A stretch of DNA of 64,000 nt from Amphiscolops sp. MND2022 (GCA_964187785.1 OZ076409.1:7938001-8002000), one strand, 5' to 3'. Counted from the stretch's first letter, positions 32,031 through 63,301 are shown. The notes: generated by a model not told the origin, from the sequence alone. A program made the numbers and translations.

Positions 32031-32432
32031 TCACGGTCTAAATTTCATTCTCACTAGTTTATCAAACTGCCGAATTGCTTCTGCTCGCAAAGGAGTTTGA
32101 ACTGATCTGACTTTGTCGAAGTCATATTTATGAGTTCTGTTTGAAATTGTGAGTGAATTGAACGGCAGTCGCAACGCATATCCACATTTGGCGACAACCT
32201 CCTCTCGTTTCGCGATAGACTCTCGCTTCCCATTGGACAACGAGTTGATCCAAGCTTCGTGCATGCAAGACGAGTTCTTTTTGGCTTTCAGAACCTCGGA
32301 GATGGTTTGTGGGTGGTAGTCGAACTGGTCTTGAGAGTTCAAATCGGGTGCAAACGTTCGATTGAACCAAGATTTCACCAGCTCAGAGTTGCTTCTCAGG
32401 AAAGACATCTTGAAAGCAGGTTGGCACTGTTG
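32031..32432 (-). CDS. Paralog A, last exon of putative glycosyltransferase-like type II membrane protein
   Basis: TTTTTTCAG acceptor in phase 0, QQCQPAFKMSF...CGYALRLP...stop; homologous to 53167-53568. Confidence 0.8.
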   Translation of the reverse strand, partial: QQCQPAFKMSFLRSNSELVKSWFNRTFAPDLNSQDQFDYHPQTISEVLKAKKNSSCMHEAWINSLSNGKRESIAKREEVVAKCGYALRLPFNSLTISNRTHKYDFDKVRSVQTPLRAEAIRQFDKLVRMKFRP

Positions 32433-32500
32433 CTGAAAAAAAAACAATTTCGTTCCATGATTAGAATTTTCAAAAATTAATCACAGAGAAATCAGCTTTT

Positions 32501-33142
32501 GGACCATGTGATCTATTTCCCCCCCAAACTGCGGCGGGGGGAAATAATACAGTAGGTTCAAATACTAGTTCTAAACGAATTAAATATGTCGACATAACAT
32601 TTTAAATAGTCAAATACCATTATGTCGACATCGTTGCGTTGAAATTTTAGTCCAATAAAATAATTGATGTCGACATAATCATGTCTTTTACATTGATTGA
32701 CAGTTAAAATCAATCATTATTCTTTGAAATGTGCTTCCAAACGGACATACTTCCATATTTACAAAACTACGAACTTTGCATTCAGCATTTAAAAAATTTG
32801 GGTCTTTTGCCACGAAGTTTAAATTGTCCCATCTGCAAAAATTGTCTGTTCTGGACAAGATATAAAAAAGTCAAAGATGGTTTTTGGCTGGAAGTGTCAA
32901 AATGGAAATTGTGCGAAATTCAAAAGTATTTTTTTCTATTCGCACGGGAAGTTTTTTCGCCCAAAGCAATATTCAGTTATCAAAATGGTTACATTTAATT
33001 TACCTACAAATTTACATTTATTTGTAAGCATATCAACTTGTTTTATTCATTCAATAATTAATATACTTGTGAAAAAGCCGTTTTCGTTTTGGGGGGGGGG
33101 ATTCCTAACAAGGTGTACCTGGGGGGATAGATCACATGGTCC
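32501..33142 (+). mobile_element. Internally deleted Merlin (IS1016/ISXO2-like) transposon
   Basis: TIR GGACCATGTGATCTAT...ATAGATCACATGGTCC; exact 8-bp TSD CAGCTTTT; frameshifted N-terminal Zn-ribbon (GLLPRSLNCPIC...DGFGWKCQNGNC...SIRTGSFF) at ~32729-32990. Confidence 0.9.
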
Positions 33143-34639
33143 CAGCTTTTCTCTATAGAAATCAATTCAAAGTGTGTGTGCGCAAATATTTTCTGAAAAC
33201 TTTTGAGCGTCAATAATGTACACTGCGAATGGAATTTCTGGCACAAAGTTCGAGTTTCTTCCTGTTAAAATGTTTTTGAATTGAATCAGTAGGCTCACCA
33301 AAAAAGTGCATTCAAATTCTCTGGCGATGTGCATCAAAATCTTGACACTAACTGCCTTTATCGAAAGTCAATATGAGCGTTTTCAGAATGTTCGCAAGTT
33401 TTTGGAAACGCTAATGCTTAAAATACTTTTGGAAATTGTGATCAAAATCATCGATGTCAATCTTTCAAAAAACACTTGAATATGAAAGTATGAAGTAGTA
33501 AACAGACGATTAATGTACCTGCCAGAAATTGACATCATATCATTGGTCGTTTCGACCAGTGCAGTTCATATCTTTATCATAGAAAGTTGCTAAAAAGAAA
33601 ACATTATTCAAGCTAACTTGTTTTCATTGTCAACACAAATACTTATTATTTTCCGACCCCACATTTTATATCTGTGGGGAAAATATATATCTGTATAGGA
33701 AAATCATGATCTGTGACCGTTTTTTTTCCAAATTTTGCCAAATCTCCACAATCTTCACCTTTTGATTACTTGACTATTTTATATAGCTACTAGTAACTAA
33801 AATACTCAAGTAACAAATAGCACACAGCGGGAATAATAGCTAGTCAAAAAAGGGAATGAGATCTAAAGGCAATAACATCTAAAATTTCAGGGCGGGAATA
33901 AGATCTAAAATCACTAAATTTCAGATCTTATTCTTTAGATCATATTACCCCTCCCAAAATAGCTATGGCTCAGTTGGTGAAGGCGAACAGGGCGGAAAAT
34001 ATCCCGGGCGTCTTGTTCACTTGCAAACAAAGGAATACTTGCTACAAGATATATCAAATGACTAAATTTCAATTTTGTTGACTTGGCAGAAACGTTTTTG
34101 GGTTTATCTACCCGGATCCAAATTCACAAGGCTTGCCTGCAAGTCCGTGTATGAAATCAAATGATCGACTCATATCCATGCGATTACATGCCTTGAGCAT
34201 AGTTCTGTAGAAACTTTAGAGAAACCAAAACTAAGCTGGATCCTTCCTCTACCGCAGTCTACCGCAAACTTCAAACACAAAATACGATAAACTAGTAAAT
34301 TCTCCGTCCAAGATCTTGGATTTGGATACATTATTCTGCCAGATTATTTTTGTCCGTTCGCGCACAGTTTGTTGAAAAATCTTACACAATATGTTTGATG
34401 TTGCATACAATTTTTGACATGCAAGATAATTTTAATTAAAAATCTGTTCTATAAATCCCAAATTCAATGATTGGACAATTTCTTTATATCACAGGGTTCA
34501 ATATACTTATGCTCGACGAGTAGTTTTGAAGGCATTTGAAATGCAGACTGAAGAGAAAAGCACACGACACGTGTTACTTTCCAAAGCGTTCTCGTTATGA
34601 TTTTTGGTTCAGCTGTGATTTGCGAGGACATTTTGCATG

Positions 34640-35760
34640 TACACTTCAACACAGTGTTTCTGACAGGATTGGGTTGTTGCGAAGTGCGCGAGGCCCAAAG
34701 TTGACGACAATCAAAATGGTTTGGTGCAACGGCTAGTCCAGCTCAAGGGAGACCGACATTTTGCCAGGTTGCAATTCGCGATGCCAAATAGGCAGGCAGC
34801 TGCGTGTTTGAGGCACATCGCTGACCTAAGCCTCCATTAAATGTCGGAAGGAGAGGTAACTGCAATTGGATGTCAGTGATGAGACCACTTATTATGCGTT
34901 CCAAGCAACCGCATAGGTGTTGGTCGAAGACTTTTAAACTCTGTGGTGGTATGGAAGGAAGGCTTCACAAAAAATGGTTGATATTACAGACCCACCAGCA
35001 GTTTTTGAAAATTGCAAACTCAGTTTGGGACTCGTTCGGTTCTGGTAGCATTTCGACAAGGGCAAACACTTTAGGTGTTTTTTCGCGAGAAAACGCTCCT
35101 GTGACCCAAGACAGCCAATGTGTGAACCTAACAGATCAACTTCTGTTGTAGGAGGCGCTTAATGTCGCCGAAGAATTCAGATCGGTTGGTGTCATTGAGC
35201 CAGAACAGTTTGCATTTCAAAACCAGACTGCTTTCCTTCTGGGGATGAAATATCCATAGATTTTACTGAATGAAGGATTCGTCGTCGAAGAACCAAAGGT
35301 GTAACACGAAGCAATGATTTCTGCAACTAGTGTGTTCAGGGCTAACGCAAAAAGGAGTGGACCACGAAGGTCACCTTTTTGAACGCCGCAAGAACCATGT
35401 TTTATGAAGCCATCATAGTCACGTAGGCTTGCGTTGCCATAACAATACACCACCTGTGTTGTATATGCTGGGGAGTTTTGTTTTGACCACCTTTATGAAA
35501 GTTTGCTTGTCTACTAGTATTGCCATGTCGGCTCTATAATCATTTGCTCAAGTAATTGACACTGTGAATTACGCACTCACGAGCAGCTTGAACTCCAACT
35601 CCGACTTGATAGGGGACAAGTAGTGTGCTTGCATCGGAGAGTACGGAACTACATGTAACCTTCAAAACGTTTCGTCTGATAGTCTCCCCCACAGCAATCG
35701 GACGAATCGTGTCACTGTTTTTGTTTAGCGCAATTAGGTTGGCGCCACAGATGTACTTTG
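34640..35760 (-). pseudogene. Decayed CRE-like non-LTR retrotransposon RT
   Basis: Minus-strand remnants ALNKNSDTIRPIAVGETIRR, YLSPYQVGVG, GVQKGDLRGPLLFALAL and WFFDD in the correct order. Confidence 0.8.
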
Positions 35761-35969
35761 AAGCTGCGGAAGCTGCTGTCCCTGACAGGAAAATATGTTA
35801 ATCACTGATGTGATCGAATTTAGGCAATTTTGAGCCACCAGTGGGACGGTGACGGATTGAAAGATAATTGCAAATTTCGTCTGACATTTGCGAGACATGC
35901 AAAATTGTTGCGAAAATTTTTCTGACTTTTTGTTAGGGTAAAAACAAAATACAATTGTCAAAGAAAATT

Positions 35970-36495
35970 GATCCTTTTGTTCCCCCACCACCATTTGTTT
36001 AAATCAGCGAACGTATTACATTGAGAAAGAGTAAAAGCCGCCCAAAAAAGTTAAATTTAAATTCAATTTCACGGTAGCAGCTTAGATTTAAATACAAACT
36101 TTTTTCACGCTAATTTTCCCTATGAAGTCACTCATTCGTAATTACGAAAATGTTTTAGCAAAAAGACTCGAATACAAACCAGAATCCTTCAACTTTAAAA
36201 TAATTTCCAGAGTGACAGTTTAGAATTGAAATACAAACTTTGTTCACACTATTTTTGCCTATGAAGTAACGCATTTTTGAGTAGGAAATCAACAGCTTCC
36301 TTTTTTGAGTCACAAACATCAGTTAATTTTCAACATAATCACAGTCAAAACGCGTGAAAAATGTTTTGTTTAAACGGAAAACTATTTGAAAAGAAATTAT
36401 CTTCATGTTTGGAAAAAGATTTCTAATCAGGCCAGGTTGAAACAATTTTTGAAATTCTCGATTGAAAAAATTGATATTGGGGGCAAAAAGGCTCT
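35970..36495. mobile_element. Diverged copy of the Merlin-like MITE
   Basis: Internal sequence matches 18700-18930 (ATACAAACTTTGTTCACAC...GAAATCAACAGCTTCC); ends degenerate. Confidence 0.6.
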
Positions 36496-36690
36496 GGTAA
36501 AGCCTGAGTGTATATAGGAAACCTTTTAAGAAGCTAAGATGAACTAATATTTATGTTTATTTGTTATTATAGATCGTTATATATAGCATATAGTCTGTGA
36601 AATCTGTGAAAACTTATGTTTGGTAAACTCTGATAATTTCACTTATTAATATTATGAAAGAGCCAGGAAATGTTGTAATGTGGAACTGAC

Positions 36691-36981
36691 CTGTTCCCCT
36701 GAGAACACGAACGAGGTCCGAATAGTGAGGGCTGATGCGGCGTGGTTAAAAGTGTGAAGAGTGTACTTGGGGATACAATGCATGAAGCAGTCTGAGTCAG
36801 CGTCACATCTTTCCAATGCTGACGTCACTAGCTTGAACGCTTCCTCTGTGAAGGAAGATTGGCCGTCAGCCAGAATAACCCAACTGACGTTGAAAAGATC
36901 TGCTGCTGTTTCAATTGCAAGCAACCTTGCAGAATTCACATTCAATATTTCTTTTTTGGCATCGCTTGTTGTCAAATTGGG
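36691..36981 (-). CDS. Paralog A, internal exon with GT-A-like motifs
   Basis: CCAATAG acceptor; ILNVNSARLLAIETA...WVILADGQS; ends GEQ|GTCAGT in phase 0; homologous to 57964-58251. Confidence 0.82.
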
Positions 36982-37689
36982 CTATTGGCAAATTCATTCG
37001 AGTCTTTTAAAGTTATTTTAAACACTAAATGATCTGGGCTTTACAAATTTTCGAAAAAGCGGATTAAAAATGTTGAATCTTTAATATCTCCACAACTACG
37101 CATACCTGAGAAATGAACTACAGCGCGTTTGAAATGTTTGGTACTGGGCTTTCATTTTGGTTAGATGAACCGCTGTTGCTGCGCGCCCCATTTTTCAACA
37201 TTTTGGCTTTTTCCGGTATCGATGCTTTACGGTCATTCCACACTTCATGCGGCCTGCTGCGCAGAGCTTGTAGCAATACCAGGGTATTTTTGGGGTTTGT
37301 TGCACAAGGACTTGTTGTGGTAGGGAAAGTGGTTGCTTTCTCTAGGGGATGGCTAAGCAATCAATTAACGCGATTTTTACTGAACAAAAAATCAATTAAA
37401 GAAATTAGCTGTGAACAAAACAATTACTGCGTTAGTTGCAATTATTTGAAACAATTTTTAAACCTAAAAAAGACAAAAACACATGACACGTCAAGTTGAA
37501 ACGTAATATTTTAATTTGGGTTCTTTGATTGCGCGATATAGTATTGCTTTTTGTTGGATGGAAAATCTGTTGTTCAAGGCTTTCAGGAAGAAGTTTTTCT
37601 GTAATTGGGTAATATATGGCGTACTTTACTCCAAAACCTACATGTAATCGAATTTACTCGTCTAATATTTGTTACCGTTAGTCGCAGCG

Positions 37690-38135
37690 GTGGTTTCCCA
37701 AATGACATAAATGCAAATAACATAAAAATAAATTAATTCCCAGAAAACATAAAAGTACATTGAATTCCCATTTAACATAAAAATGAAATATTATTATAAC
37801 GTAGTCAGATATGTTCACATACCCCTAGTGCCCTAAATGCAGGAGCGAAGCGAAGCGGAGCGACGTGCCATATGGCCATGCCTCAATGTTGCTACTTGGC
37901 GAAGGGAGCGAAGCGACCGAGCCATACAACAAATATGCAAACCTTTTCAAATAAATCAAGTTCCAACATATTGGCTGTAACAATGATTCAGCGCAAGCGA
38001 GAAAATAACGCAAGGTTGAATTTCAATTTTCAACCAATCAGAAGCGCTTAATTGTTTTATGTTTTCTGGGAATTAATTTATTTTTATGTTATTTGCATTT
38101 ATGTCATTTGCATTTATGTCATTTGGGACGTAATC
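37690..38135. mobile_element. Foldback/Mutator-like MITE with ACATAAA-rich arms
   Basis: Arm CCCAAATGACATAAATGCAAATAACATAAAAATAAATTAATTCCCAGAAAACATAAAA is inverted at ~38055-38127; 9-bp TSD GTCGCAGCG/GTTGCAGCG. Confidence 0.85.
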
Positions 38136-38600
38136 GTTGCAGCGTTGAAGCAATTACTGCTTCAGTTATTTTCGTTTCCGTAACTAATTTCCGTTAATTG
38201 ATTGCCGTTAACGGAAATCTATTCAATTGATTGCTAACACCTGTCTATGGATCCAGGACTTTTGAGAAAAATTAGATTTCACCACAAACGGAATTTTGGA
38301 AAAGTAAAACCATTTTTCACAGTTTTGGAGACATATTCAGTTTTTCTAATGCTTGTGCCATTCAAATCAATCTAAGTACCAATGAATTGTTGACAAAATG
38401 CTGGAGTAAATGGGCAACTGGCAAAACGAACCAGAAATTTAACACAAGATGGGGTGGTTTAAAGTACTGCTAGGTTAATTAGGGATAAGGGCTTTTCTGA
38501 AAGATATCAATGATGCTTTAAGAGAAAGAGCAACAATGAAATGTGAGCAATGATGACTTTCAGACGGCAACAGGATGGTTTTTAGCTCATCCAGTAAATT

Positions 38601-39020
38601 GGACCATGTGATAGAAAAAAAGAAACAAGGTCCAAATACCATTATGTCGACATCGTTTACGATGAAATTTCAATCCAATAAAAAAATTGATATCGACATT
38701 ATCCGATCTTTACCATTGCCACACAGATAAATGTTGCTCGTTAGATTTTATGGCGGAGAAAATATGCATAAAAGTAGGGACCTTTCTTTACGATTTTGGC
38801 TTGTTCCAAGCGTGAATTTTCACTACTTTGAACAACAATGTCATAAAATCAACAAAGTTGGGGTAATTTTTTGCTGTAAGCGTCAAAACAGCTCTAAAGA
38901 TAAGCCCTAAGTAGTTGCAACCGCATCAAAGTCTTTCATTTGGTCAAGAAATTTTTTCAAAAAAAAGTGGGTGTTTTCGTGTTGGGCCGGGGGTATTCGC
39001 AACAAGGTGCACCTGGGGGC
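38601..39020 (+). mobile_element. Degenerate relative of the 32501-33142 Merlin element
   Basis: Starts GGACCATGTGAT; shares CAAATACCATTATGTCGACATCG and AACAAGGTGYACCTGGGGG. Confidence 0.65.
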
Positions 39021-39155
39021 TGGTTGGGGTAATAAAAAACTATGATCCAAAAACTAACAAATTAATCACCAATTTTCAACGAATCGACAAAAACCAAAAT
39101 TTGAATTTTCCAACTCCTAGTTATCGTTTTGGGATCTGAATGAATTATCAGGAAC

Positions 39156-39632
39156 ATCGGGATGCTCAAAGGGACTGGGAACTGCCAGAGTCATTTCTTG
39201 ATCCGTGAAAGCAGTCCGCCAAATGTCCTGCATCAAGTCATCGTCCAAAATACTGTGTAGCACCCAAATTCTGTGGAAGTCTTCTGGCAGTTTTTCTCCC
39301 GTTTTCACGGAGTGAACATTGTACAAAATTCGCTGGTTTGTTTGTAGCGGAGGGAAATTGTTGGTCACTATTTTTACGAGTAAGTATTTCGGCGAATAAC
39401 CCATAGGTTGAATAATATCTTTCCGATTTGATGTAGTGTGCTGTGTTTTTCTTTTGTATTCTCCGTACATCCACAGTAAGTGTTTAGGAACCTCTATTTT
39501 TTCATCGAAAAGATCCAAGATTTTTTGTTCACGCTTTGATAATCTGTCGATGATAAAGAAAATGGTGATTGTAAAAAGAATTGAGTAAATCAAGCCTGCA
39601 CTCCGTTTTCTCAAGTAATTCATCTTTACCAT
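39156..39632 (-). CDS. Paralog A, first coding exon (signal anchor, stem, start of catalytic domain)
   Basis: Basic N-terminus then hydrophobic GLIYSILFTITIFFII; KYLLVKIVTNNFPPLQT...FHRIWVLHSILD; donor position uncertain. Confidence 0.8.
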
Positions 39633-41935: not shown

Positions 41936-44900
41936 TGTAACGACAAGCTCTCACCATTGTCGCCGTAACCATTAGAATTGGAGGAACACAAGGTATGAGT
42001 ATTTGCCCGGGACAGGCGCCCATGACCATGAGCTCATTTTGCCTCCTTCGGGTAAAAACTGTCCCGTCAGAGAAGGATTCCGCTTCTTTTGAAGTGCTTG
42101 CCGGCCTGATCCAGTCTTTATTGGCTGTCAGTAGCGCGAATTACGCTTTGTCTTCGGAATTATCACTTAGACAGCCTTTAAAAACGTTCCAAAAGGAAAT
42201 TATAATAAATTTTCGTTATTCAGGGTGACTTGGAGAAAAATATCTAAAATTGCGGAATAAGAACTAATGTTGTCAAAGTAGCCATTAACTTACAATGTAC
42301 AGCAATCTACAGCAATATCGTCCACAACAGCAATTTGGCAACATCCACATTCAGCTCGCAAGATGGGGCACCACAGGCACAGATTTGAGAATTAGACGAA
42401 AAGACTCATTTTTACGGTTTTCGCTACTTAAGGTAGCATACTGCTGAAATCAAGGTTAGCACCTTTGAAAGAGCCTAATTTCAGAGGTTTTTGCAGTCTC
42501 TGGCGTCTGTTCGGGCGGCTGGCCTTATTTTTTTTCTCGATCTTGCTCTTTGTTGTCGAAGTACCTGCCAATTCGTTGAAACAGCGAAAAGAGCAATCAC
42601 ATGCTCAGTGCCACGTCAAACATCTAATTAGAATTTTTGACAAAATTTTCTGAACATGTTCAAGTCCCAAATTCCAATATCGACTGATTTTGCTGTCTCA
42701 GAAGGTGCCGTTACTTCATTTCCCGGGCCTTAGGCATGACGTCCCTGTCATGCGGAGAAGCTGGTATTGAAAACATCTCCACATCATCTTTGCAATCCAC
42801 TGGGATCTCAAACTGGTGATGTTGCAAGGGTCCAGTGGCACTGTCATCTTTCGCTGATTGGGCAACCTTGAGGTCTTGCTTCTTGCAATCCAGAGAACCT
42901 GCATCGTCCATGAACTGTTGAAACAGAGCTAGCTCGAGAGCTAGAAAACAAGTACTCAAAAATGCACTTTCAAACAAATCATAATCTTTAATCTATATAT
43001 CAGTCTAAGAGCATCATTTAATTGGCAAAAGTTTTCTGCACTAAGTTTGGATGGGATCTTGATAGCACTGATGTTTATGTGGTTTAAGAAATTTTTGGAG
43101 CCCTAGGGCTCTCTGGCGCGGTTTCTCTCAAAAACTTTTTTCCACGCCAGTAAAAATTCAGTTTGCAGAACAGTTAAAGCTTGTTTTCAGTAAAAAATTT
43201 TTTTCAGCGGAAAGACCACTGTTTAAAAGGAAAACAGGTAGTTTTTGATATTTTTTGTTCAAAGTTTGGCTAGGTTTGGGCAGCACGCACTGATGTGTAG
43301 CTCCATACCAAAACAAAAATCGGTAGCATCCGTTGAGGAGAGTATGAAAGGCGAATTATCAACTGCATGTGAGATTTAGCACTGAGACAAAAATAGACAA
43401 GATTATGTAATTGAAATTTTCGGAGCTAATGAGTTCCATTAAACAAGTTAATCCGTAGAAAAGCCACTGAATCAAAGGAAAATTGACATTGAAACTTCAA
43501 GGAGTATAACTATAGAGATAACGAAACTAAAGAAGAAACTAAAAAAAAGGTATCTGGCTAAAGTTGCCTTAACGAGGACTTTTGTGTTTGTTTGTTTTTC
43601 TTTGTTTTTTTGTCAGGCCTCACTGATAGCCTTGAAAATGTTATATCAAATAATTTTTACGCGGAAGAAAAAACAAAGTGGAACAAAAAAACATTATCAA
43701 GCTATGATTGTAAACATCAGAATCGATTGAAAGTAATCGATTGCGGTCAGGATTTCATTACTTTAGATTGTGGCAAATTCCGTGGGTGGTCAGCGTGGAA
43801 TGTAGAGAATTAGAGTGTTGTCGCTCCATGAGTCTCCTCGGATCTTAGTAAACTCCCCGGGCCCTAATCGTTGGGCCTTCTTTTTCATATGAGGGTAGCG
43901 AGGAATAGACAAACTTGAATGCCCGACACAAAAATTGCAGAATGATAAGTTGAGCTTCAACGACACCTCCTCACCCCTTGAAAAAAAGGAATTGTAGCTC
44001 GGGGTGTGGATAGGCATGCGGGACATGCAAAAAGCATGAAATATCAGGACATCCAATAAAGAAGAAAATAGAGGCTGAGTCTGTCTCAAGACTGTGATGA
44101 TTGTTCGGTGGACGGCCACGCCCATGTCCCTTCGGTCTATGTAACCATGGTGGTAAGAGGACTGAGCGTGGTGGACGGCCACAGCGACGTCTGCGATGAA
44201 GCGAAAGCAGAACTTTATGCCATGAGAGTTCACCAGAAATCCGCGGTGGTCGACAACGTCTATGTCCAGTCGGTCGAGATTTGGTTGAACCACTATGCAA
44301 CCATTTGATAAAGATTGGCTGGTCCACCTGAATATAATCCTGTAGACCACGTTCAGCAGAAAGTGGCTCAATAGAATATTTCAGCAAACTCGGCTGCAAC
44401 TGCGAAGTGAATAATAGGGACTTTGTTCCATGCAAGTGAGAGTTGCTCACAGAATCCTGCGATTAGGAAATGGAGGGTGAGATTGACATTCGTTCATTTT
44501 TCGTATCACTTGAGTAGAGGTTGCGCTCGAGCAACCCATTGTCACCGGCATGATATTCAGACAAAGTGTCAGCAATACTCATGGTTGTGGTGTCCAAAGA
44601 TATTGTGTCCACCCCCATGCCTTCTGTTGGCTGTGTCATTGGTTCTACTTCGGCGTCGTTTGAAATATTGATAGTGGTACTTCTGAGGTGTATTTGCACA
44701 TCTGCATTCATCGACTGCATTTGTGGTAGCGCTCGAGCTAGCAATTTTTCTGCGTAATCCACTTTGTGCCAAGAAAATTGATATTTCATCCATCTGTTGC
44801 TCCACGGCCTCTAATTGTTGGTCCTGTTTCTGATAAATCTGAATACTGATTTCATGGAGAGAGAATCCTTTCGACGACGATACTGAACTAGCACTGGAAG

Positions 44901-47900: not shown

Positions 47901-49838
47901 AAACTGACTAAAAGTCAAGGTTTTTCAAATTTTCTTGTTACGAAAACGTGAAAAACCTACTCAAACGTTAATTTCTGTTCTTTGGAAGGTGTCCCAAGGT
48001 TTTAGCAGCACGGAAGAGGCGATTGCAGTGCTATCCAGCATTCTTCCTGTAGCATTTCATAATGGTTTTTTGTCAATTCCGCCAAAAACCGGGTTTTTTC
48101 ATACAAAATGCGTCCAAAAAGGGACTCCAACGCCTTTTCTGGTGGACAATACATTTTGTAGCAGTACTCTAAAAAGTATGGGCTAATTCCCATACATTTT
48201 TGCAACTGTTGTGTCTATTAACTAGAGCGCTCGCGCTCGTACCAAGAAAAAAACTCAAAAATGCCAAAAATGTCGTTTTTGCTACTTTTGCACCCAAAAT
48301 CGGACTTTTCCCACTGAAAACGGCTGCAAAAGCACACACTAAGTTGCAACAGGGAAAAACTAGCAAGAAAAAACGATTCCCCATCAAAAAATACACAATC
48401 GAAAAAATTTTTCGTATCATACTCCGAAAAACGGATACTTCTGGAATGAGGGGTGGTACCCTGTCTTTTTTCTCAACACCCAGACCAGCCAGAGACAAAC
48501 GGTTTAGACCCTCAGAAACGTCAACCATTGCTCTACGTTTCCATCGAAAACCATCCCTCTAGGACGTCTCCACGAGAAATGGGAGAGGAGAGTCGGGAAC
48601 ACTCGTTTCAGCTCATCTATCAGTCGGATGGAATATGGCGCATCCATCAGTTGAATACCTCATACATAGCCAAAAACGCTGAAATGAGCTACAAAACACC
48701 TGTTACGACAGGCGTAACGGCTTTTTAGCGATTCGCTAAGCCATTACAAAGGTACCCGCTGATGGGAACATGCAATTTTAGACGATACCTGTCAATAAAT
48801 ACCGTTTACTAAAATACCATTGATTTTTGGGAAAGTCACCTGAAAAACGGACAGAAAACCTGTTACAGTAAACCTGTCAATACACCAAGTTTCAAACAAT
48901 GAAGGAAAACTCTATGTAAACATCTCCAACCAGAGCCATGTTGTACTTGGCGTCAATCACCAGAGTGTCGGCTCTTTTAAAACCATTAAGGGAAGCACTT
49001 CGAAGCGATCCTTCTGTGGTCGCCAAAAAAGGATGTCGCAATGTAACGACAAGCTCTCACCATTGTCGCCGTAACCATTAGAGTTGGAGGAACAAAAGGT
49101 ATTGGTATTTGCCCGGGACAGGCGCCCATGACCATGAGCTCATTTTGCCTCCTTCGGGTAAAAACTGTCCCGTCAGAGGAGGATTCCGTTTCTTTTGAAG
49201 AGCTTGCCGGCCTCATCCAATCTTTAATGGCTGTCAGTAGCGCGAATTACGCTTTGTCTTTGGAATTATCACTTAGACAGCCTTTAAAAACGTTCCAAAA
49301 AGAAATTATGTTGAATTTTTGTTTTTCAGGGTGACTTGGGGAATAAAATCTAAAACTGCGGAATAAGATCTAATGTCAAAGTATCCTTTAACTTACAATA
49401 TACAGCAATCTACAGCAATCTCGTCCACAACAGCGATTTTACAACATCCACATTCAGCTCGCAAGCTGGGGCACCACAGGCACAGATTTGTGAATTAGAC
49501 GAAAAGACTCATTTTTTACGGTTTTTGCTACTGCTGAAAGCATACTACTTTAAGGTAGCATACTGCTGAAATCAAGGTTAGCACCTTCGAAAGAGTCTAA
49601 TTTCAGAGGTTTTTGCAGTCTCTGGCGTCTGTTCGGGCGGCTGGCCTTACTTTTTTTCTCGATCTTGCTCTTTGTTGTCGAAGTACCTGCCAATGTAGTT
49701 GAAACAGCGAAAAGAGCAATCACATGCTCAGTGCCACGTCAAACATCTAATTAGAATTTTTGACAAAATTTTCTCAACATGTTCAAATCCCAAATTCCAA
49801 AATCGACTGACTTTGTTGTCTCAGGGGGTGCCGTTACA
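41936..49838 (-). mobile_element. LTR-bounded non-autonomous element (LARD-like) with unidentified ORF remnants
   Basis: ~780-800-bp direct repeats at 41936-42715 and 49042-49838 with TGTAACG...CGTTAC(A/T) ends; tRNA-end-like ATCCTTCTGTGGTCGCCA at 49008-49025; no clean outer TSD. Confidence 0.65.
43971..45120 (-). pseudogene. Frameshifted ORF of unknown type inside the LTR-bounded element
   Basis: Overlapping same-strand ORFs 44569-45048, 44463-44789 and 43971-44450; acidic/Ser-rich region, coiled-coil-like stretch, then repeated GRPP motifs. Confidence 0.45.
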
Positions 49839-50895: not shown

Positions 50896-50955
50896 TTTTA
50901 CTCGCACTGCGCAAGTTTCTGAGTTTTGTTTCAACTAAAGGTTAGTTGATTTTTA

Positions 50956-52097
50956 CCCGGGTTGACCCTCTTACTAGCATCTTGGCTGTCTTGGCTGTCT
51001 TGGCGAGGTCTTGCCAAACTCTTACTACATCTTGACAGCCATGGATCGCATGGCAAGATTTTTACTAGGATCCTACCAAGATGTATCATCATTCCAAGGT
51101 CGAATCTTACTAAGATCGAAAAAATTTTTGGATTTCAAAAATTCGATCAAGGGTGCTGAAAAAAGCTACATTCGTATAATAATTCTTTTGCCGGGTCTTT
51201 ACACGATTTCTCAGCCTGGACCTTGATTTCCTGTAAAGATTCAAATTCCCTGTGAATCCAAACCTTATTCCAGCGGTTTTAGATCTTACAACGGTGAAAT
51301 GAGAACCGACCTACGAGGTTTTGTTTAATTTTTAGGAGGTTTTCGGGGTGAAATTGGCTAAAATATTGACATTTTGAGGGACTTTTAGATCTTAATCCAG
51401 AGATCTGAGTCCTTATCCTAAAGATCAGTGGTGTTAGATCTTAATCCATTGAAATGAGATTCGACGTACACTGTTTTTTGTCCGTTCAGGGGTTTTCTAT
51501 ATGAAATTGGAGAGAATGTCATTTTGAGGAACTTTAGATCTTATGCCATGTATATTCCTAGCAATATACATGGAATAAAATCTAAAATTCCCCAAAACGA
51601 CATTCGATGGATCCGGTTTTCAGTGGTGTTAGATATTAGTGCTGTGATTTCAGTCCTTATTCCAATGGCTTTAGATCTTATTCCTGTGAAACGAAAACCA
51701 AAGTACAAGGTTTTTTCAGGGGTTTTCCTTATGAAATTGAGAAAATATCGTCGTCCTGGTTTGTAGTGGATCATCCAGTAACTTTGTTTTGAGTGATGTT
51801 TAGTTTAATTTTGCATAATGTTTAATTTAATGGTTTTCTGATTCTACTTTTTCTCGATATCAAACAGCAATTTCAAATTTTTTCTTGCAATATTCGGCTT
51901 CTTAGTAAGATTTTTATTGCCATATTGGGCTTCTTAGTAAAATTTTTCTTGGAAACATGGCTCTGTTGAAAAGATCTTACCATGGCATCTTGCAATTCTT
52001 GGCAATATCTTGTCACGATCTTAGCTAAGAGTTTTCCAAGATCTTCGCAAGATCTTGCCAAGATCTTACTAAGATATCCATGGAGGGTCGACCCGGG
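50956..52097. mobile_element. Non-autonomous TIR element with CCC...GGG ends (CMC/EnSpm-like)
   Basis: CCCGGGTTGACCCTC / GAGGGTCGACCCGGG flanked by TA on both sides; subterminal (A)AGATCTT(G) repeats. Confidence 0.8.
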
Positions 52098-53166
52098 TAG
52101 CCACAAAAAAAACGACCGTGTGAAGTACCAAAAAAGATCTGAAGGCTTTTTTGGAAAAGGAAATTTCCCTCGGAAGACTTCGGTTTCTTGAGTTTCTTGT
52201 TTAATGATTAAAACCGCTTTTCGCGTCTTGGGGTGACTTCTGTGAGTGTTTTTCGATATTCTTTGACTGATGAAAGTTTTGTTAATTTAGGGCGTCTTGT
52301 AATGGTATACAAAATCTCACAGAGCCATTTTTTCATTTTTTAGATAGATCCAGAACAAATAAGCCAACTTTTGTAGGAAATGTCGAAATGACAACGGTAC
52401 CAGTTGGAACATTTTGAAAGCTTAGGAATCGCAAATCGTCTAGAAGAGTTGAAAAAACTGTCAGTATATCGGATATAACTGAGTATATATCAATTCTTCC
52501 CATCTTTTTTCTCGGCGCCATTATTAATTGCCAAACCTGAAAGTATTTGTTATCTAATTTCATTATGAAAACGTTAGATCCGATCTGAAAACGCTATATT
52601 CAACAAATATTCCTTTTTATGCCAAATATACCACTTAGCAGAAAATGTTTTGAGAAGTATTTAAATATCAAATCTTTGCAAAAAAGGCATACAAAGTACC
52701 ATAAACTGAGATCTTCCATTTTACACCGCTTTATTTGATTTCATTTGGTATTTACGGAGCTGATCACTTCATTCCAGAGTGAAAAACAATTAAAAGTTCT
52801 GTAGGAATCGAACCCGCGACTTCTTGTTTGTAGTCTGTGGAACTAAGCAGCTAAATTACGCTGACATCCACTTTGCTTTTCGCTTTGAACTGAAAGTTTA
52901 AAAACTTCGCACACTGAAAATTTACTTCTTGTGAAATTTTCTGAAAAAAATACCCTTCAGAATACGAAAATTATTATTTTTTAAATTGATAACTGTTTTT
53001 ATCTTCATGTAACATCGAACTGGATACGCCAGACAAACAATGTGTTCATTGGTTTCCTTGCTTTATGGTTTGGACGACGAAAGTTTCAAACTTCAAGATT
53101 TGACAAAGATAGGGGCATACATCATTGTTTTTATTGGAATGATGCACCGACAAAGAGGTTCATCGA

Positions 53167-53568
53167 TTAAAGCACCAGTTTACTTCGAATAAATTCATCA
53201 AATTGGTCAATAGCTTCTTTACGGAGGGGCTTGTGTATCTCAATTACTTCCTTGTAATCGTACTTATAGGTTCGATTCGATATTGTTCGAAAATTGAACG
53301 GTTGTCTGAGAACATAGCCGCACTTGAAAGCAATTTGGGCTCGTTTCGTGATAGACTCTCGCTTGCCATTGGACAACGAGTTGATCCAAGCTTCGTCCAT
53401 GCAAGACGAGTTCTTTTTGGCTTTCAGAACCTCGGAGATGGTTTGTGGGTGGTAGTCGAACTGGTCTTGAGAGTTCAAATCGGGTGCAAACGTTCGGTTG
53501 AACCAAGATTTCACCAGCTCAGAGTTGCTTCTCAGGAAAGACATCTTGAAAGCAGGTTGGCACTGTTG
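53167..53568 (-). CDS. Paralog B, last exon
   Basis: ATTTCAG acceptor at the same position as in paralog A; QQCQPAFKMSF...CGYVLRQP...stop. Confidence 0.8.
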   Translation of the reverse strand, partial: QQCQPAFKMSFLRSNSELVKSWFNRTFAPDLNSQDQFDYHPQTISEVLKAKKNSSCMDEAWINSLSNGKRESITKRAQIAFKCGYVLRQPFNFRTISNRTYKYDYKEVIEIHKPLRKEAIDQFDEFIRSKLVL

Positions 53569-55639: not shown

Positions 55640-56195
55640 GTTAGGCGACAATTCGTCCCAACCGACGATTTGTCCCAGGCAACAATTCGTTTCAAATTTC
55701 AAAAATTCGTCCCAAGTGGCAGTTTGTCCTATTTTTAAAAAGCGACAGTTCATCCTATTGGTAAAGAGCGACAATTCGTCCTAAATTCGTTAAATTATTA
55801 GCTATATAACAAAAGTATATCATTTTATAGTTCACCCAGTTGGTTTATTCTACTTTCATTTCACCCACGTTCTTTTCAGCTCAAACTCATTTCACCCCAA
55901 CGTTTTAATTATCAAATGCGTTTTGGACTAATGACTACTGTCACACAATTTCAATCTTGGCACGAAACGAAAAGCGAATTGAACGTATTAACTAACTAAA
56001 AGCAATATTTCCGGATCCATTTTTACGAAGGTGTGATTTGGCTATTAAATTGGGAACGGCTTGCAGTTTTTAATAAATGGTACGAAATGCCCCCTTTTCA
56101 AAATAGGACAAATTGTCGCTTGGGGTGAATCGCCGCTTGGGGTGAATCGCCGCTTGGGGTGAATCGCCGCTTGGGACAAATTGTCGCTATACGCA
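55640..56195. mobile_element. Foldback-like element of the GCGACAATTCGTCC family
   Basis: Forward units at 55645-55785, inverse units at 56105-56190. Confidence 0.7.
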
Positions 56196-56772
56196 TCGGA
56201 CGTGCATGCTCCAAATGTCAATCGACGAGGTAAACCTCGACCAGTTTTCCGTCCATCAATTTCGGTGAGTCGTTGTCGACGAGTTAGCCCCTTACCTAAA
56301 AATTCACTCCGTACATTGTTGAAGTTTGTGAAATTCACTGTACCTTGATCACGCTCATATAAAGTAGCCATATCATTAATAGCAACAGAGCACGCGCAAA
56401 GAGAGCAAATAAGCAAATCTCATTGGCTGATTAAGGTCTCACGCCCTCATTTCATTGACCGAAACCACCAAAAGTGAATAAAAAGTGGCTTATCTTGACT
56501 TTTACAATTTTCATCATTACAAAATCATTACTGTCAAACAAACATTATTGTAAAGTAGATAAAAATTTAAGAAACTTCAATTTTACATTCTACGTTAGAT
56601 ATTCGATTTTGAGATTTGTCTTCTTTAATAAATTTTCGCTTTTAATGATATTACTACTGTATAGAGTGTACATAGACTCACATGAAACCACGTGAGATCT
56701 CTACCATTCACATTATCCCAGTGAGCCAAATTAGGAGGAAACAATGATTGGAAATGCCCTGAGTGAAATCTA

Positions 56773-57937
56773 CCCAGTGTTCCAAGCCATGGTATTCCCG
56801 ATCTCCACGCATTCATAGACTGGTTTTCCAACTAGGGACACGGTCGATAACTGAACATGGTTCAATCGAATTTTTGACATGATATTCTTGGTAAGAACCA
56901 TGACAAACCATGGTTATCTTATCAAGATCTTGCCATGATCGTGACAAGCGTTCCATGTATCATGATTTGCCACGATCTTGACAAGGGTACCATGGTTAAC
57001 CATGATTTAGCAAGATTAACCATGATCATGGCAAGCGTTCCATGGCTTCGAACACTGCCCAGTGTTCGAAGCCATGGTACCCTTGCCAAGATCCATGGCA
57101 AGTTCCTTCCTAGCCTTGCTAAGATCTTGCCATGATCTTGCCATGATCTTGGCAAGGATACCATGACCATGCAAGATCGTGCAAAGGCTAACCATGATTA
57201 ACCATGATCTTGGCAAGGGTTCCATGGTACCATTAGCGAAACTTTTGGAAAATTCAGAGCTCTTATTTTCAAATTGTAACTAGAATCTAAAAATTTATTC
57301 GGACCAAAAAACAGACATGTATAGGGTTAAACAGAAGAAAAACTGATACTCAAGACATTAGAGGAAAAATATTTTTGCTGCGACCATTGTAAGTTTTTAC
57401 CTCGAACTTCAGTAATTAGAACCCGTTACCTCAATAGATAAGGCAACAGCATGATTTGCATAAATGTAAACAAATCATAGCTAGAAAACTTGGTTTTCAC
57501 ACCGATATCGTAAACCCCCAAGTTGCAATAACTTGATTCGGAGTTTGCTTTATATGATAATCTATGATAATAGTAACAATGCCGTGCTCTCAAGTAACAA
57601 AACGCGGTCAATAGGTGCAGCAAATTATTGAGCAAGTTTTTGATAATTTTCAATTAAAAAACTATTTTCGATCAATAAATGTTATGTCCGAAGTTATTAC
57701 AATGGCTAATTCAGAAATTGCAGACGACAAGGACTTTTTGCGAAAAGAATAAATTATGCACAATTAAAACCAGCTTACATGTCTTACCATGGTTATCTTG
57801 TCAAGATCTTGCCATGTTCTTGACAAGCGTTCCATGTATCATGGTTTGCCACGATCTTTACAAGGGTACCATGGTTAGCATGATTCAGCAAGATTAACCA
57901 TGATCATGGCAAGGGTTCCATGGCTTCGAACACTGGG
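56773..57937. mobile_element. Two fused CCCAGTGTTCGAAGCCATGG-TIR elements in a paralog B intron
   Basis: TIR at 56773, inverse ending at 57057, new TIR at 57058, inverse ending at 57937; CCATGATCTTGGCAAG subterminal repeats. Confidence 0.8.
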
Positions 57938-57963
57938 TCCCGATTTTGAAGTTTGGCACTTAC

Positions 57964-58251
57964 CTGTTCGCCAGAGTGCCAGTAAGAATTTCGAATCTCG
58001 AGAAACTCGCTGAAAATGTTTGAGTGTGTTGTGTACTTTGGAATACAGTGCATGAAACAGTCTGGATTGGGTCCACACTTTTCCAGCGCCTTCGGTACCA
58101 GCTCCATTGCCTCTGGGGTCAAATAAGACTGGCCATCCGCCAGAATGACCCACGTGCTATTGAAAAAGGTCAGTGCCGTCTCAATTGCGAGCAGCCGGGC
58201 AGAGTTCACGTTTAGAATGGCCTCTTTCACGCTCTCTGGTGTCAGCTTTGA
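57964..58251 (-). CDS. Paralog B, internal exon with GT-A-like motifs
   Basis: ILNVNSARLLAIETA...WVILADGQS...CFMHCIPKY; ends GEQ|GTAAGT in phase 0. Confidence 0.82.
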
Positions 58252-58519
58252 CTTTTGATAAGAGCATTTGAGTTTTGTTCATCTAAGTTTCTCCAAAAAG
58301 ATGAAAATTGAAAAGATATCAAAAAATACCAGACAACTCGTTGCGTTTTGGAGAAATGAGAAATGAAGACGTTTAGGTATTACCTCGGAATGTATAATTG
58401 TTCTATTTGAGAATGTAAATCATTGTATATCATAGAAAAAATAATTAAAACAAATTGAAAATTTGAAAATATTTAATGTATATAATTGTATATAATGGAA
58501 AATATAGTTGAAACATTTT

Positions 58520-61500
58520 GAAGCAGTTTTTTTCTGTTTGCCATCAATCAATGGAACTGATGGGTCAGCACCAGCTATAACTTTTATGATTCTACCTTGT
58601 GTTTGTATTCGTGTTGGTGAACTATTTATAGTAAGATAGATTGATATTAGAATCATTTGCTACGGCTACCTTACAGCATGAAGTTAGTGCCATAGAGATT
58701 TTGATTCAGAAACCTTCCTTTTTTAGAATCAAGTTGAATTAGAAAATAGTGCAGTCAGCAAATCCTATTTATCAATTGACAATACCATTTTTACGAAAAC
58801 ACAGGAAGTAACGACGATTGAATTAAACAGACATCAACAAAAAATAGTCATGGGAGAATTAATACAGGATACGAATTAATACAGGATACGACAAAAACGG
58901 TTGGATCGGAAACAAAAATTGAATCCAAGCAGACTTCGTATGGGGCATTGGCCTAAAAAAATATACCAGATGACACGGGCAGAACACAAACCTAAAATGC
59001 AATCATGATCTAATATGGCCATTCGACGAACATTTTCTTACGGGACCAAATACCGGGCTGAATTTTTTCGGACAAAATCAACCGACACGTCTGGTAGAGA
59101 TTGATGGAAATTGAAAAAAAAAGCAGCTGAAGAAAAAAGCTCAACTCATGAAACAAAAAGCAACCTCGATACTGTTACACTTGCAGGAGGCCATCGGGAA
59201 ACAAGGAGAAAAACGGAAAGTCCCCAGTTACTTGGAGAAAAAAAATATGTTGATAAAGATTATTTTGTTTTCGTAAGAACCAAAAAAATTGACAAATTGG
59301 TAAACATAGCTTTAGACTCACGAAGATTGAAAAATATCAGAAGAAACAAGCCGAAAGTGGTATTTGCAAAACCAGAGTAAATATATAGTAGGTACCGCCA
59401 ACTTGTGAATACATGTTATGGTCTAGTCGACTTCCCGAGAGCATATCTACAGATATTCTTGACCATCTGCATGAAATTATATTATAGTAGCAACACAGAG
59501 AGTTCACGAAAGAAAACTATTCGAAGTACTGACGAAACTAAGAGGAATTGAACACCGAGTAAGCGAAATACAATCGGATTGTTTTCAAAAAAGATGGCTA
59601 GGACTAGATATTGATTCGAACATATTTGAACCGAACGAAGAAAAAGTGTCAGAACATCAGAACTAAAGTATAAGGAAAGGCGGAGAAGTAAGAAAAACAA
59701 GTTTAGAGATAAATAGAATGTTAGCCGGAGACCTTTGCTTAGCACATTATGCTAAAGACGGATATAAGGCTGTGACCATCAAAACCGGTCGCAGTATACA
59801 ATGTGCCAAAAGCAATCCGACAGCCTAATAAAAGTGATCACTTTCGGATGCAGATACTTAAACGTTTTAGTTCTAGAGGGGAAAAGGTTTCCTTTTTGCG
59901 GACAAGAAACTCGAGAGACCCTAATCGAACGAAACAGATGTAAGAAGAAAAATGTGCAGACCGGTTGGAAAATGTCGATATTGCAGTAAACATATAGCGG
60001 GTAGTGAAGTGAAAACGCGGTAAGGGACGCTCTCAATGAACAAAAACGTATACGATCAACAATATGTACTAAACGTCCTATCTCAACAAGCCGACATGTT
60101 CTTCAAATACGGGAGAATGACTATTTGTATCAAAAACAACACGAATTTTAAAAAGAGTAGAACCTCACGAAAACAGAACGCTAAACCAACCAAAATGCAC
60201 AATTTCATTCCAGAATGAACAAAAACGTGAACAAAGTGAGCGAACTCGTCAATACCAAAACGCGCTTCATTAAAATTCTACCCAATCGAAAAGCTGTCAA
60301 GGTTAACGCTTTTTTAGAGCAAAATGTACCGAGATCTTTTTCACTGTGGGACAACAAGTGAGAGCATTGAGATCATACGGCGAAGAATAAAAAGCACGGA
60401 AACTTTACACTTGGTGGAAAGACGATTAGAGATATCCACGTCAGAAACGGTACATTCAGCAGAAGCACCGAACAATCTCGACAGCGAGGGCAAAATCTAG
60501 ATTATGAGAAGTGGCAACCTTCCAATGGTTGACTTAAAAAACTATAACATGGACGGAACGAAGGGAAACTACGTGCAAAAAAACAGGTGGTCAAAGAAGT
60601 GACGAAAGGGAAAAATATTACCGTAGAATTGATGAAAAAAGCCAAAATGAAAACAAGGACCTGAAAACAATGATCATCAAATGGGAAGCAAACGCAGAAC
60701 TACAGCGGGATAAAAACGCAAGCGAAAGAAACGACCGAGGAACGGCACCTGCTCTTTATAGCCAGGTATTTAACACTCTATCGATGAAGTGGGGTCTAAT
60801 ATTCAACGAGGAGAAAATTCGAGTCTCGGAAGAATCACGGAAGAAACTGCTGGACTCTTTACAATTTCGTCATGCCGGAACAACTAAAATTCTGGCCGCA
60901 GCAGCAAAAAAAAATTGGGAAAAACGGCACCCGAGAATACAAACATGCAAAGCTGTAGTTGAACGTGCAATACAAACGCTAAAGAGTTCAATAAAATGTA
61001 ACTGGAAGATAATTCATGTTGGACCGAAAGTGTGAAAAGGCCGTCAAACGTGATGTGGTATACAAAACATACGGATTCAATTCAACATCATATCAGTAAT
61101 ATTACGACAGATAGCCTGGAACCGAAGTAACCAATCTCAATAAAGACGGCAAGTCTTTTTTCTCTGATTCGTCCGAACTCTTCATTGCAGCGGAAAAGAA
61201 CCAAAAAACACATTATCACGTTTTCAAAAAAAGAGAAGGGGTCATATCCAACTATATGGTATTGGCGTGGACGAAGCCGAAAAAGGTATTGAAGGAAAAA
61301 CAGCCAAGAAATGAAGTTCCGTTAGTGAATACTTTTGAAGAATGTAAAAGAAATCAGAATGAAAATCATCACGAGGAAGATTCCAACAAAAATTTCAAAC
61401 CGCAATAAGCATAATCGAACCCACAGGCAATACTAACATTCGAAGGTGATACTCCGTGATAATCCTAAACTGTACCCGAAAAACTGAGTCTGAATTGAAA

Positions 61501-62150
61501 TAAGAACAGGGGAATAAACGAACAAGACAAAAGCGATTTCGGAATCGAAATCCCCGGCATATCCGAAAACAATGGTTACAAACCAATAACCACCAACCCT
61601 GATGATGAACTAAACTTGTATTGCGACGAAAAGATACCTACCGGTGAGAAAAAAAAGTCGAAAATTGATAACCGAAAGACAAATTACTGGACGCTGGAAC
61701 CGAGAATATCAACAACGGAACAAACACGGGGGAATACCATACACCCGAAGTTTACGGACATAAATTATTTTTCAAAGTGTTTTACGAATTAGACACGTGA
61801 GGCTGCCCAGAAATTTGCCGAAGCTATCGGACTTCCAGAGAGAATGAAGTCCAATGCCGGGACCATCAAAGTTATGAGAAGGAACCCAGAATGGAGAAAG
61901 ATCAGACGGCGAGATACTGTGTCGGGTTTATTCAATTTGCCATCAACCAATGAAACTGAAAAATCTGCACTATCTAGAACTTTTATAAGTCTACTTTGTG
62001 TTTTTCTTTATAAATGTTGGTTATCTATGTATATTAGAATAGTTTGATATTAGAATCATTTGCTACAAAGACGTTACAGCATGAAGTTGCTACAATAGAG
62101 GAGATTTTAAAATATAATCCTTCCGTTTATAGAAACCAAGTCAAAATAGA
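58520..62150 (+). mobile_element. Heavily decayed, internally deleted Gypsy related to the 21539-27485 element
   Basis: LTR-like repeats at ~58520-58745 and ~61917-62150; PBS remnant TAGTGCAGTCAGCA at ~58748; peptides DKLVNIALDSRRL, WGLIFNEEKIRV, VERAIQTLKS. Confidence 0.8.
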
Positions 62151-62270
62151 ACAACACGAAAAAAATTAAACTTGGTTTATTCAGGTAGATTCGTCAACTT
62201 GCTGACAACAGACCAAAATCAAAAACTCAAAGTCAAAATTTGGAGTTTTCAACTCAAATGATCAATTAAC

Positions 62271-62620
62271 AGCTCGATTTGGAGAAATCTCGAAAGGACT
62301 GGGTACCATAAGTGTCATCTCTGCGTCGGTGAAAGCTTTGGCCCATATTTGGTCTGTCAAATTCTTATCCAAGATACTGTGTAAGACCCATATTCTGTGG
62401 AAACTTCCAGGCAACTTCTCAAATTTTTTAATATCTTCGACATTGCGTAACATTGTCCGTTTTGTTTGTAGAGGTGGAAAGTTGTTGGCCACAATTTTGA
62501 CGAGTAAAAATTTGGGTGCAAATTCGGTGGGCGTCAATTCATCTCTATTGTCAAGAAATGTTGTATGTTTGGTATTTACGTTCATTGTGATGAGTTGAAA
62601 TTTATTTCTTATCTCCAATT
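62271..62620 (-). CDS. Paralog B, segment matching the 3' half of paralog A exon 1
   Basis: KFLLVKIVANNFPPLQT...FHRIWVLHSILD...AFTDAEMTLMVPSPFE; both boundaries approximate. Confidence 0.75.
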
Positions 62621-62684
62621 GAGAATATATTGGAAAAAATTGTTGAAAAAAATGGGAACTTTGTCCAAACTGATGAAAGTATAC

Positions 62685-62967
62685 AGATATAAACTTCGTT
62701 GACGCCATTTTTCCCCATGAAGTCACGCATTCTTGATCAAAATTCAACAACTTCCTGTTTTTAGTCGCAAAAAAAAACTTAATTTTCAACATTTTCACTG
62801 CCAAAATGTGTGAAAAATATTTGTTCAAACGAAAACTATCCCAATAGAACTTAACTTCCTGTTATGGGAAAAACTTCACTTCGAATTCAACAAGTTTGAA
62901 ATTTTTTGTAAATTCAAAGAGAACCCCCAAAGAAGTTTGATGGTGGGTGAACAAACATGAAAGAGTC
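62685..62967. mobile_element. Truncated Merlin-like MITE between the two halves of paralog B exon 1
   Basis: Matches 18730-19008 (GAAGTCACGCATT...AACTTCCTGTT...AAAGAG(T)CC). Confidence 0.7.
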
Positions 62968-63028
62968 CAAAATTCACAGTTATATCAAATTTAATTGGCT
63001 GAGAACGTCATAGGGGACGATTTCTCAA

Positions 63029-63301
63029 TCACAGTACTGTATGTCTTGACACCTCAATGAAGGCTGATGAATAATAAAAAAAGACTAATACAATTTCAAA
63101 AGTTGAACGTAAATACAATCGTTTCTCGTCCGCTTCGCGAAAGTGTTGCTGAAATTCTTTAACGCCATTGAAATGAGGCGTTTGGCTATAGGTGCGATTA
63201 GAGGGTTTTTGAAAGTACAAACCAGAAAACAGAAAGTAAAAGCCAGAAAATATAATAATAGCAATCACTGGGCACAGTAAGTTGTATCTTCTCTTGTCCA
63301 T
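63029..63301 (-). CDS. Paralog B, probable first exon with signal anchor
   Basis: MDKRR followed by hydrophobic LLCPVIAIIIFSGFYFLFSGLYF; good ACCAATGG start context; true 3' end unknown. Confidence 0.6.
   Translation of the reverse strand: MDKRRYNLLCPVIAIIIFSGFYFLFSGLYFQKPSNRTYSQTPHFNGVKEFQQHFREADEKRLYLRSTFEIVLVFFYYSSAFIEVSRHTVL

Follow-up and report, generated by a model that had tools for sequence, protein, structure and literature searches.

In GT-A glycosyltransferases (GTs), the xED and C-His elements have roles in the enzyme, and both are often changed among GT-A families, according to the accessible part of one account (PMC7185993). The available text of another describes Bacteroides BoGT6a (with NXN and Lys231) and GT14 as having lost the DxD motif, with C-terminal Lys/Arg residues serving the leaving group (PMC3961637), and the PL5 lyases characterised so far are mostly parts of alginate biosynthesis pathways, as far as the accessible portion of a third source goes (PMC11890756). 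Here we analysed a 64,000-nucleotide stretch of the genome of Amphiscolops sp. MND2022 (GCA_964187785.1 OZ076409.1:7938001-8002000), hereafter the window, whose minus strand carries two tandem paralogues, genes A and B. The pair belongs to a family without a Pfam model and with a predicted GT-A fold; we lean towards the explanation that the two genes are spliced and their products Golgi-anchored, that an acoel ancestor took the family up from a microbial eukaryote, and that A and B are catalytically dead or re-specified offshoots of it.

All blocks listed in an original prediction made from the DNA are open reading frames at the given minus-strand positions, and the seven exons assemble into A (three exons) and B (four exons; Table 1, in coordinates of the whole window). 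For A, predicted GT..AG phase-0 joins yield a stop-free protein of 389 aa, in agreement with the anticipated length of about 390 aa; its first donor, GTTCCT, is atypical and is the sole in-frame donor past the conserved PSPFE stretch. The last three exons of B mirror those of A, and the phase-0 intron GEQ|QQC proposed as common to the two genes is seen in both. The boundary proposed at 62620 in B did not hold, as no AG precedes this position and the frame begins at 62618; two stop-free joins of the first intron are available instead, 63117 to 62544 (382 aa, with an acceptor, CAATAG, resembling that of A) and 63092 to 62612 (413 aa). Each protein begins with a 19-residue hydrophobic stretch (Kyte-Doolittle 1.93 in A and 2.33 in B), consistent with the type II signal anchors first suggested, and both products are likely Golgi-anchored type II proteins; splicing of A and B is likely as well, being predicted from frames and splice sites. 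A profile of 40 database proteins, from which the window's own exons were left out, matched 6/6 core exon blocks collinearly (domain E 4e-13 to 5e-4), so the exon set is not a product of chance. P0151, from another assembly, is 96.8% identical to the product of A exon 1 over 156 aa, and a word-index search for longer proteins containing this exon found none among 182 candidates. A PDB sequence match to FlhB was rejected as an artefact of the C-terminal helix. Because two copies of a dispersed ~270-bp repeat flank B exon 1 in inverted orientation, we also considered this exon as the interior of a transposon, and rejected the idea since only a 60-nt stretch outside the exon is repeated among 40 scored matches.

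A profile search returned 1,084 family representatives at E<=1e-3, of which the best 150 were examined; relatives occur in bacteria, viruses, algae, apicomplexan transcriptomes and acoels. Apart from chance matches, no Pfam family exceeded its curated cut-off in the window exons (0/6) or in the paralogues (0/4), and no Pfam GT matched the domain among 95 proteins scanned, save one sub-threshold Anp1. The best NCBIfam match reached E 0.005, in 3/111 proteins, and neither NCBIfam nor PHROGs holds a usable model for the domain; a known GT family, animal ones included, did not score above cut-off in Pfam or NCBIfam. In the ESM Atlas, unnamed viral and bacterial clusters scored 0.91-0.96 and GT-family leads stayed under 0.9. 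A tblastn search of phages gave no match, and 0/80 stretches were confirmed in JGI metagenomes scanned with the protein of the acoel Convolutriloba macropyga. Six IMG/VR viral contigs (L114-L119) carry stand-alone members, with open frames of 287-330 aa and without a lyase domain.

The fusion to alginate-lyase-like domains named at the outset was borne out among relatives: PF05426 is carried by 10/95 proteins scanned and by 12/40 in another set, and in GTDB genomes, where 79/201 confirmed stretches were kept, the domain is fused to a lyase in 60/79 loci, as judged with a lyase profile made in this analysis. No lyase domain was found in the acoel-clade proteins scanned. Among 13 bacterial loci scanned for neighbours, we found GDP-mannose pyrophosphorylase/isomerase (L040), UDP-glucose/GDP-mannose dehydrogenase (L097), a sugar transferase (L046) and GT2s; several of the 13 have no sugar-activation or transferase neighbours. 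Four loci from Kushneria, Thioalkalivibrio and Salinicola (L040, L046, L051 and L101) carry from one to three genes with a PF05426 lyase domain, joined in some of them to the GT-A-like domain, with sugar-activation or transferase genes beside them in L040 and L046, and are possibly an undescribed type of polysaccharide locus.

The fold was modelled with AlphaFold2 for two relatives, an intronless paralogue on scaffold C7 of the same genome (predicted local distance difference test score 90.8) and C. macropyga XP_075238688.1 (87.2). Foldseek placed SpsA first for both (E 7e-6 and 1.3e-6, respectively), with template-modelling scores of only 0.3-0.4. In VIA searches the C7 model matched RmlT at Z 13.5 (root-mean-square deviation 3.1, 189 aligned) and the C. 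macropyga model matched WrtF at Z 13.7 (2.8, 172 aligned; 48,161 chains), level with RmlT, K4 chondroitin polymerase, CHSY3-CHPF, TarS and SpsA; no family stands out. These matches to GT-A enzymes support the proposed fold, and the family is predicted to have a GT-A fold with a Rossmann-like alpha/beta/alpha core. GT6 and GT14 are not among the structural matches listed, which excludes nothing.

The proposal of a GT-A/GT2 nucleotide-sugar motif was upheld in part. The ARN..W..D of the family was aligned to GmaR, at its ARN..W..DAD (E 0.016), and to a GT2 profile (hhalign 57%, E 1e-4); the DxD motif itself is not present in the family. At the DxD position, whose equivalence rests on these two alignments, 148/176 rows have D-G-N and one has D-x-D, with the first Asp kept in 175/176; A and B read D-G-Q. 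Further along the domain, E266 is near-invariant, K293 occurs in 154/161 rows and R340 in 143/146. Anchoring the motifs to a GT2 seen in L066/L069 puts K293 at the xED Asp and R340 near C-His, with the C-terminal hhalign alignment unreliable; motif filters for this mapping selected 0/43 and 0/39 GT2 domains. From these residues, typical members probably act without metal, in transfer to, or of, an acidic sugar.

Genes A and B depart from this pattern. We scored 17 near-invariant residues, numbered on the P0001 domain, in 158 well-covered rows: 114/158 keep all 17 and 30/158 miss one. A and B each miss 6/17 (R80K, Q94, N170L, R223T, E266Q and K293) and keep 11/17; they retain N166, R169, W184, D189, G190 and R340. 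The two are 19-25% identical to the eight relatives compared, and the pair has a long stem branch (1.55) in the tree. The two genes are identical to each other at 215/310 aligned domain positions (69%). Outside one tract, the proportion of synonymous differences between their exons is saturated (pS 0.76-0.84) while that of nonsynonymous differences is low (pN 0.23-0.29), which marks an old duplication under purifying selection. In the last exon, the initial 229 nt hold only 4 differences between them, while the upstream introns are unalike, and recent gene conversion is the best reading of this tract. Four of the six lost residues lie outside it, and these four losses therefore predate the duplication. 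A and B as uncollapsed haplotypes were rejected, the unconverted exons being only 61-65% identical.

The combination of a 6/17 residue loss with purifying selection is new here, and this loss makes A and B the copies least likely to be active transferases. They are probably pseudoenzymes or re-specified enzymes; selection has kept them although three basic residues and the Glu proposed as catalytic are gone, for which a pseudoenzyme or binding subunit would be the simplest reading, with a re-specified enzyme as its main rival. Tentatively possible is an alternative in which the family is of horizontal origin and A and B are active with a remodelled site that accepts a new donor or acceptor. 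Strong purifying selection, together with a recent homogenising tract over the altered C-terminal segment, would suit such a role, as would the retention of D189, R169 and R340, a Glu three residues ahead of the lost one (SGEQQQCQ), and the frequent alteration of the xED base and C-His in GT-A families noted in the accessible part of the literature (PMC7185993). Six near-invariant residues have, however, been lost together, including the most conserved acidic one after D189 and three basic ones, and among the 158 rows only P0035 and P0032 are similarly degenerate. These two, from the acoel-like clade and independent of A and B, miss 8/14 and 5/17 conserved residues, respectively; site loss may thus recur.

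The window lies on a 104-Mb scaffold (C1) of a 1.07-Gb assembly, with transposons around the genes and a host-like GC of 38%. Seven Wnt matches exceeded the cut-off (on C3, C4, C10 and C40), and since Wnt genes are present the host is an animal, as the original prediction had supposed. As a lower bound, the family occupies at least 8 loci on 6 chromosome-scale scaffolds, namely three on C1 (A, B and a third near 95.2 Mb) and others on C3, C4, C7, C8 and C9. The family is integrated in host chromosomes, with introns, and the expanded, intron-bearing, membrane-anchored animal version that had been envisaged is what these copies and their predicted N-terminal anchors present. Introns vary by paralogue: C7 has none, C3 one in the domain and C8 about four, with C3 and C8 introns at sites other than those used in A and B. 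P0019, which clusters with Symsagittifera roscoffensis XP_063713674.1, shares 52% identity with the C3 protein, and the C. macropyga protein, P0036, has several RefSeq isoforms; on this basis the host is probably a further convolutid acoel. The C4 paralogue (G000:C4:6266463-6269563) is broken and carries stops, and the C9 paralogue (G000:C9:30456431-30458035, L003) is truncated beside gag-like retrotransposon sequence, with decayed partial duplicates upstream. Judged by these broken copies, the family is undergoing birth and death in this genome.

The origin of the family was examined with a quick tree of 178 rows, from which 19 short, redundant or low-coverage rows were dropped, and a careful tree (79 rows, 298 columns, LG+G4, without a site-mixture model); the two agree. 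An acoel-like clade (99/93) contains A and B (nested at 99/86 and 97/89) and is sister (94/91) to a 10-row apicomplexan-labelled clade with Polyplicarium translucidae (two rows) and GHVS01 as named members. The next branch outward is an alga-like clade with jgi/Mesen1, read here as Mesotaenium. GHVS01 is Rhytidocystis sp. ex Travisia forbesii in the available text of its source (PMC10304595). The eukaryotic type splits from the bacterial/fungal-like, lyase-fused type at 100/97, and the latter is the most distant. The kinship first drawn with proteins of the RIxGNDLPPRH type stood insofar as these belong to the same family; the closest non-acoel relatives are of the single-domain eukaryotic type instead. 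From these trees, a horizontal origin of the acoel genes appears probable, and an apicomplexan lineage would be the donor in about half of the cases of transfer. For comparison, a study of Xenoturbella lists 56 horizontal gene transfer candidates, and glycosyltransferases are absent from its main text as far as that is accessible (PMC11521371). In the partly accessible literature on the domain, on horizontal transfer in acoels and on gregarines in acoels, with subscription journals and supplements outside its scope, we found no description.

That an ancient eukaryotic gene descended vertically, was lost in most animals, and was kept and expanded in acoels (perhaps also in annelids and others) seems to us doubtful. 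Members of the eukaryotic type are found broadly, in apicomplexan transcriptomes, in a streptophyte alga and in many unlabelled contigs; taxon labels are sparse among the best 150 of 1,084 matches viewed, and parasite transcriptomes may hold annelid host reads, all of which leave room for vertical descent. Monophyly of acoel and fungal-like sequences is nonetheless rejected by the approximately unbiased (AU) test (p=4.5e-5, with fungal labels assigned from sequence style), and no non-acoel animal name appears among 28 clusters looked up, which show no choanoflagellate name either, or among 40 further matches, where labels are sparse (species names were found for 2/20 acoel-clade, 3/5 apicomplexan-labelled and 1/3 alga-like clusters). 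In addition, intron sites are unshared and many acoel-clade relatives are single full-length open reading frames, as for a once intron-poor gene.

Improbable in our estimate is a donor among green algae or another photosynthetic lineage taken as food or kept as a symbiont, or a transfer that ran from acoel to apicomplexan parasite. The AU test rejects the acoel plus alga-like tree only marginally (p=0.037), and convolutids host algae close to germ cells, according to the accessible text (PMC4183113), which describes mucus bodies as well in S. roscoffensis; as for a reverse transfer, sister clades give no direction. The best trees, on the other hand, twice put the apicomplexan-labelled clade as sister, and no Tetraselmis or dinoflagellate label occurs among the few labelled rows. 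That the genes are DNA of a symbiont or contaminant, or the unspliced debris of a pseudogene, is hardly credible: although splicing of A and B is predicted only, the first donor of A is atypical and the C4 and C9 copies are broken, the window belongs to a 104-Mb scaffold with host-like GC and kilobase introns with host repeats, copies lie on six scaffolds, frames are intact with synonymous saturation, and the C. macropyga relative has multi-isoform RefSeq models.

Collectively, the explanation that we prefer, acquisition from a microbial eukaryote followed by divergence of A and B, would run as follows. One intron-poor gene would have entered the acoel lineage from the eukaryotic branch of the family, where the apicomplexan lineage is the best sampled sister of the acoel genes, and would then have duplicated, with introns gained independently among the paralogues. 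Typical members would act in the secretory pathway as metal-free sugar transferases that use a nucleotide-sugar donor, with D-G-N in place of DxD, a Lys at the position of the xED base, an Arg near C-His and the invariant Glu E266 as a possible catalytic residue. Because the site is rich in Arg/Lys and bacterial relatives are fused to a polyuronate lyase, the product could be an acidic glycan that contains uronic acid, possibly one found in mucus or matrix. In A and B the fold would persist, together with a portion of the nucleotide pocket (N166, R169, W184, D189, G190 and R340); either they would assist an active paralogue, as its non-catalytic partner or as a subunit that binds glycan, or they would be enzymes of changed chemistry. 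The most specific version, in which an apicomplexan-lineage parasite gave acoels a metal-independent, polyuronate-building GT of an undescribed family, since expanded into a Golgi pathway for an acidic mucus or matrix glycan not of the animal type, with the window genes as its pseudoenzyme subunit, we hold to be quite improbable as a whole.

Several points weigh against this explanation. The acoel-apicomplexan node, at 94/91, falls just under the starred threshold, the tree groups received their names with the first tree already in view, and A and B sit on a long branch (1.55). Fungal labels in the tree were assigned by us from sequence style, and Polyplicarium has an annelid host. Since 150/1,084 representatives were viewed, mostly unlabelled, other animals could hide inside or below the acoel and apicomplexan clades. 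Rhytidocystis, the source of one of these transcriptomes, parasitises the polychaete Travisia, in the available text (PMC10304595); annelid host reads may contaminate the parasite transcriptomes, and the "donor" clade would in that case be annelid. On the structural side, the models are of the C7 protein and of C. macropyga XP_075238688.1, and a profile match is what connects A and B with them; hhalign, which aligned only the N-terminal half well, did not confirm the mapping of Lys to xED and of Arg to C-His; and the transferase activity of family members is itself a prediction.

Two direct repeats of ~800 bp lie between A and B at a distance of 7.1 kb; they share 94-98% identity and are possibly the long terminal repeats (LTRs) of a decayed element; the open reading frames between them have no Pfam match. 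Other repeats and mobile elements of the window are included in Table 1, and a tandem repeat family with an 11-bp unit occurs in the last intron of B and downstream of B.

Table 1. Features of the window, in coordinates of the 64,000-nucleotide stretch.
Feature	Coordinates	Strand	Remarks
Gene A exon 1	39156..39632	-	Start codon, predicted signal-anchor (residues 11-29), stem, beta1-beta3 of GT-A-like domain
Gene A exon 2	36691..36981	-	NVNSARL helix, WVILADGQ (DxD position), beta5; profile E 9e-14
Gene A exon 3	32031..32432	-	QQCQPAF (family E to Q), YHPQTI (family K gone), CGYALR, C-terminal helix, stop
Gene B exon 1	63117..63301	-	Predicted signal-anchor; donor 63117 or 63092
Gene B exon 2	62271..62544	-	beta1-beta3; acceptor 62544 or 62612
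Gene B exon 3	57964..58251	-	NVNSARL, WVILADGQ; profile E 4e-13
Gene B last exon	53167..53568	-	Open frame, family profile match
Inferred gene-conversion tract, A last exon	32204..32432	-	4 differences/229 nt relative to B
Partner tract of inferred conversion, B last exon	53340..53568	-	Same comparison
Ty3/gypsy-type LTR retrotransposon	21740..27133	+	gag/protease frame (425 aa) and pol frame (1,372 aa; reverse transcriptase, RNase H, integrase), parted by in-frame stop 23015-23017 in protease region
Direct repeats, ~800 bp	41936..42714; 49042..49837		Between A and B
Copies of ~270-bp high-copy dispersed repeat	63420..63690; 62685..62872; 36146..36417		4,860 candidates, 40 scored
DDE_3 (Tc1/mariner-type) transposase fragment	1817..2326	-	
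Short tandem repeat arrays	15763..16339; 51996..52082; 56899..57935		

With more than 1,000 representatives in bacteria, viruses, algae, apicomplexans and acoels, a family without a Pfam, NCBIfam or PHROGs model and with an unusual DGN/Lys/Arg site is one in which a single assay would inform on all members. Acoels are tractable as models of regeneration and photosymbiosis, which makes a role in mucus, matrix or symbiont recognition testable, and with the A/B pair comes a branch, likely of pseudoenzymes, that selection maintains. To our knowledge, there are few documented cases in which an animal gained functional genes from microbial eukaryotes and expanded them; if the most specific version above is true, the present case would be a eukaryote-to-eukaryote transfer from parasite to animal, and would expose the function of the domain found on bacterial/fungal "alginate lyases".

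Among described systems, GT2-type GT-A enzymes (SpsA, RmlT, TarS/TarP, WrtF, K4 chondroitin polymerase and the GT domain of GmaR) share with the family a Rossmann-like core (Z 12-13.7), and its N-x-x-R-N helix and W-x-x-x-D strand align with the GT2 ARN..DAD. Unlike them, the family has no PF00535 match, reads D-G-N, bears a type II anchor, has 7-17% structural identity, and appears to have a Lys where the xED Asp would be. Animal Golgi GT-A enzymes (CHSY3-CHPF, LARGE1, B3GalT5 and GnT-I) have the same fold (Z 11-13.5) and type II topology, whereas they show no sequence similarity or Pfam match to the family, none ranks above the bacterial GT2 rows, and the tree ties the family to protists. 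Partner subunits have a precedent in the CHSY-CHPF heterodimer. The metal-independent BoGT6a and GT14, as far as the accessible text describes them (PMC3961637), resemble the family in the loss of DxD, with DGN and an invariant Lys and Arg on the family's side, but the likeness is an analogy, and they are not among the structural matches listed. In bacterial and fungal-like PF05426 "alginate lyase" proteins, the unannotated N-terminal domain is this family; they differ in a long insertion, in the lyase fusion and in forming its most distant branch.

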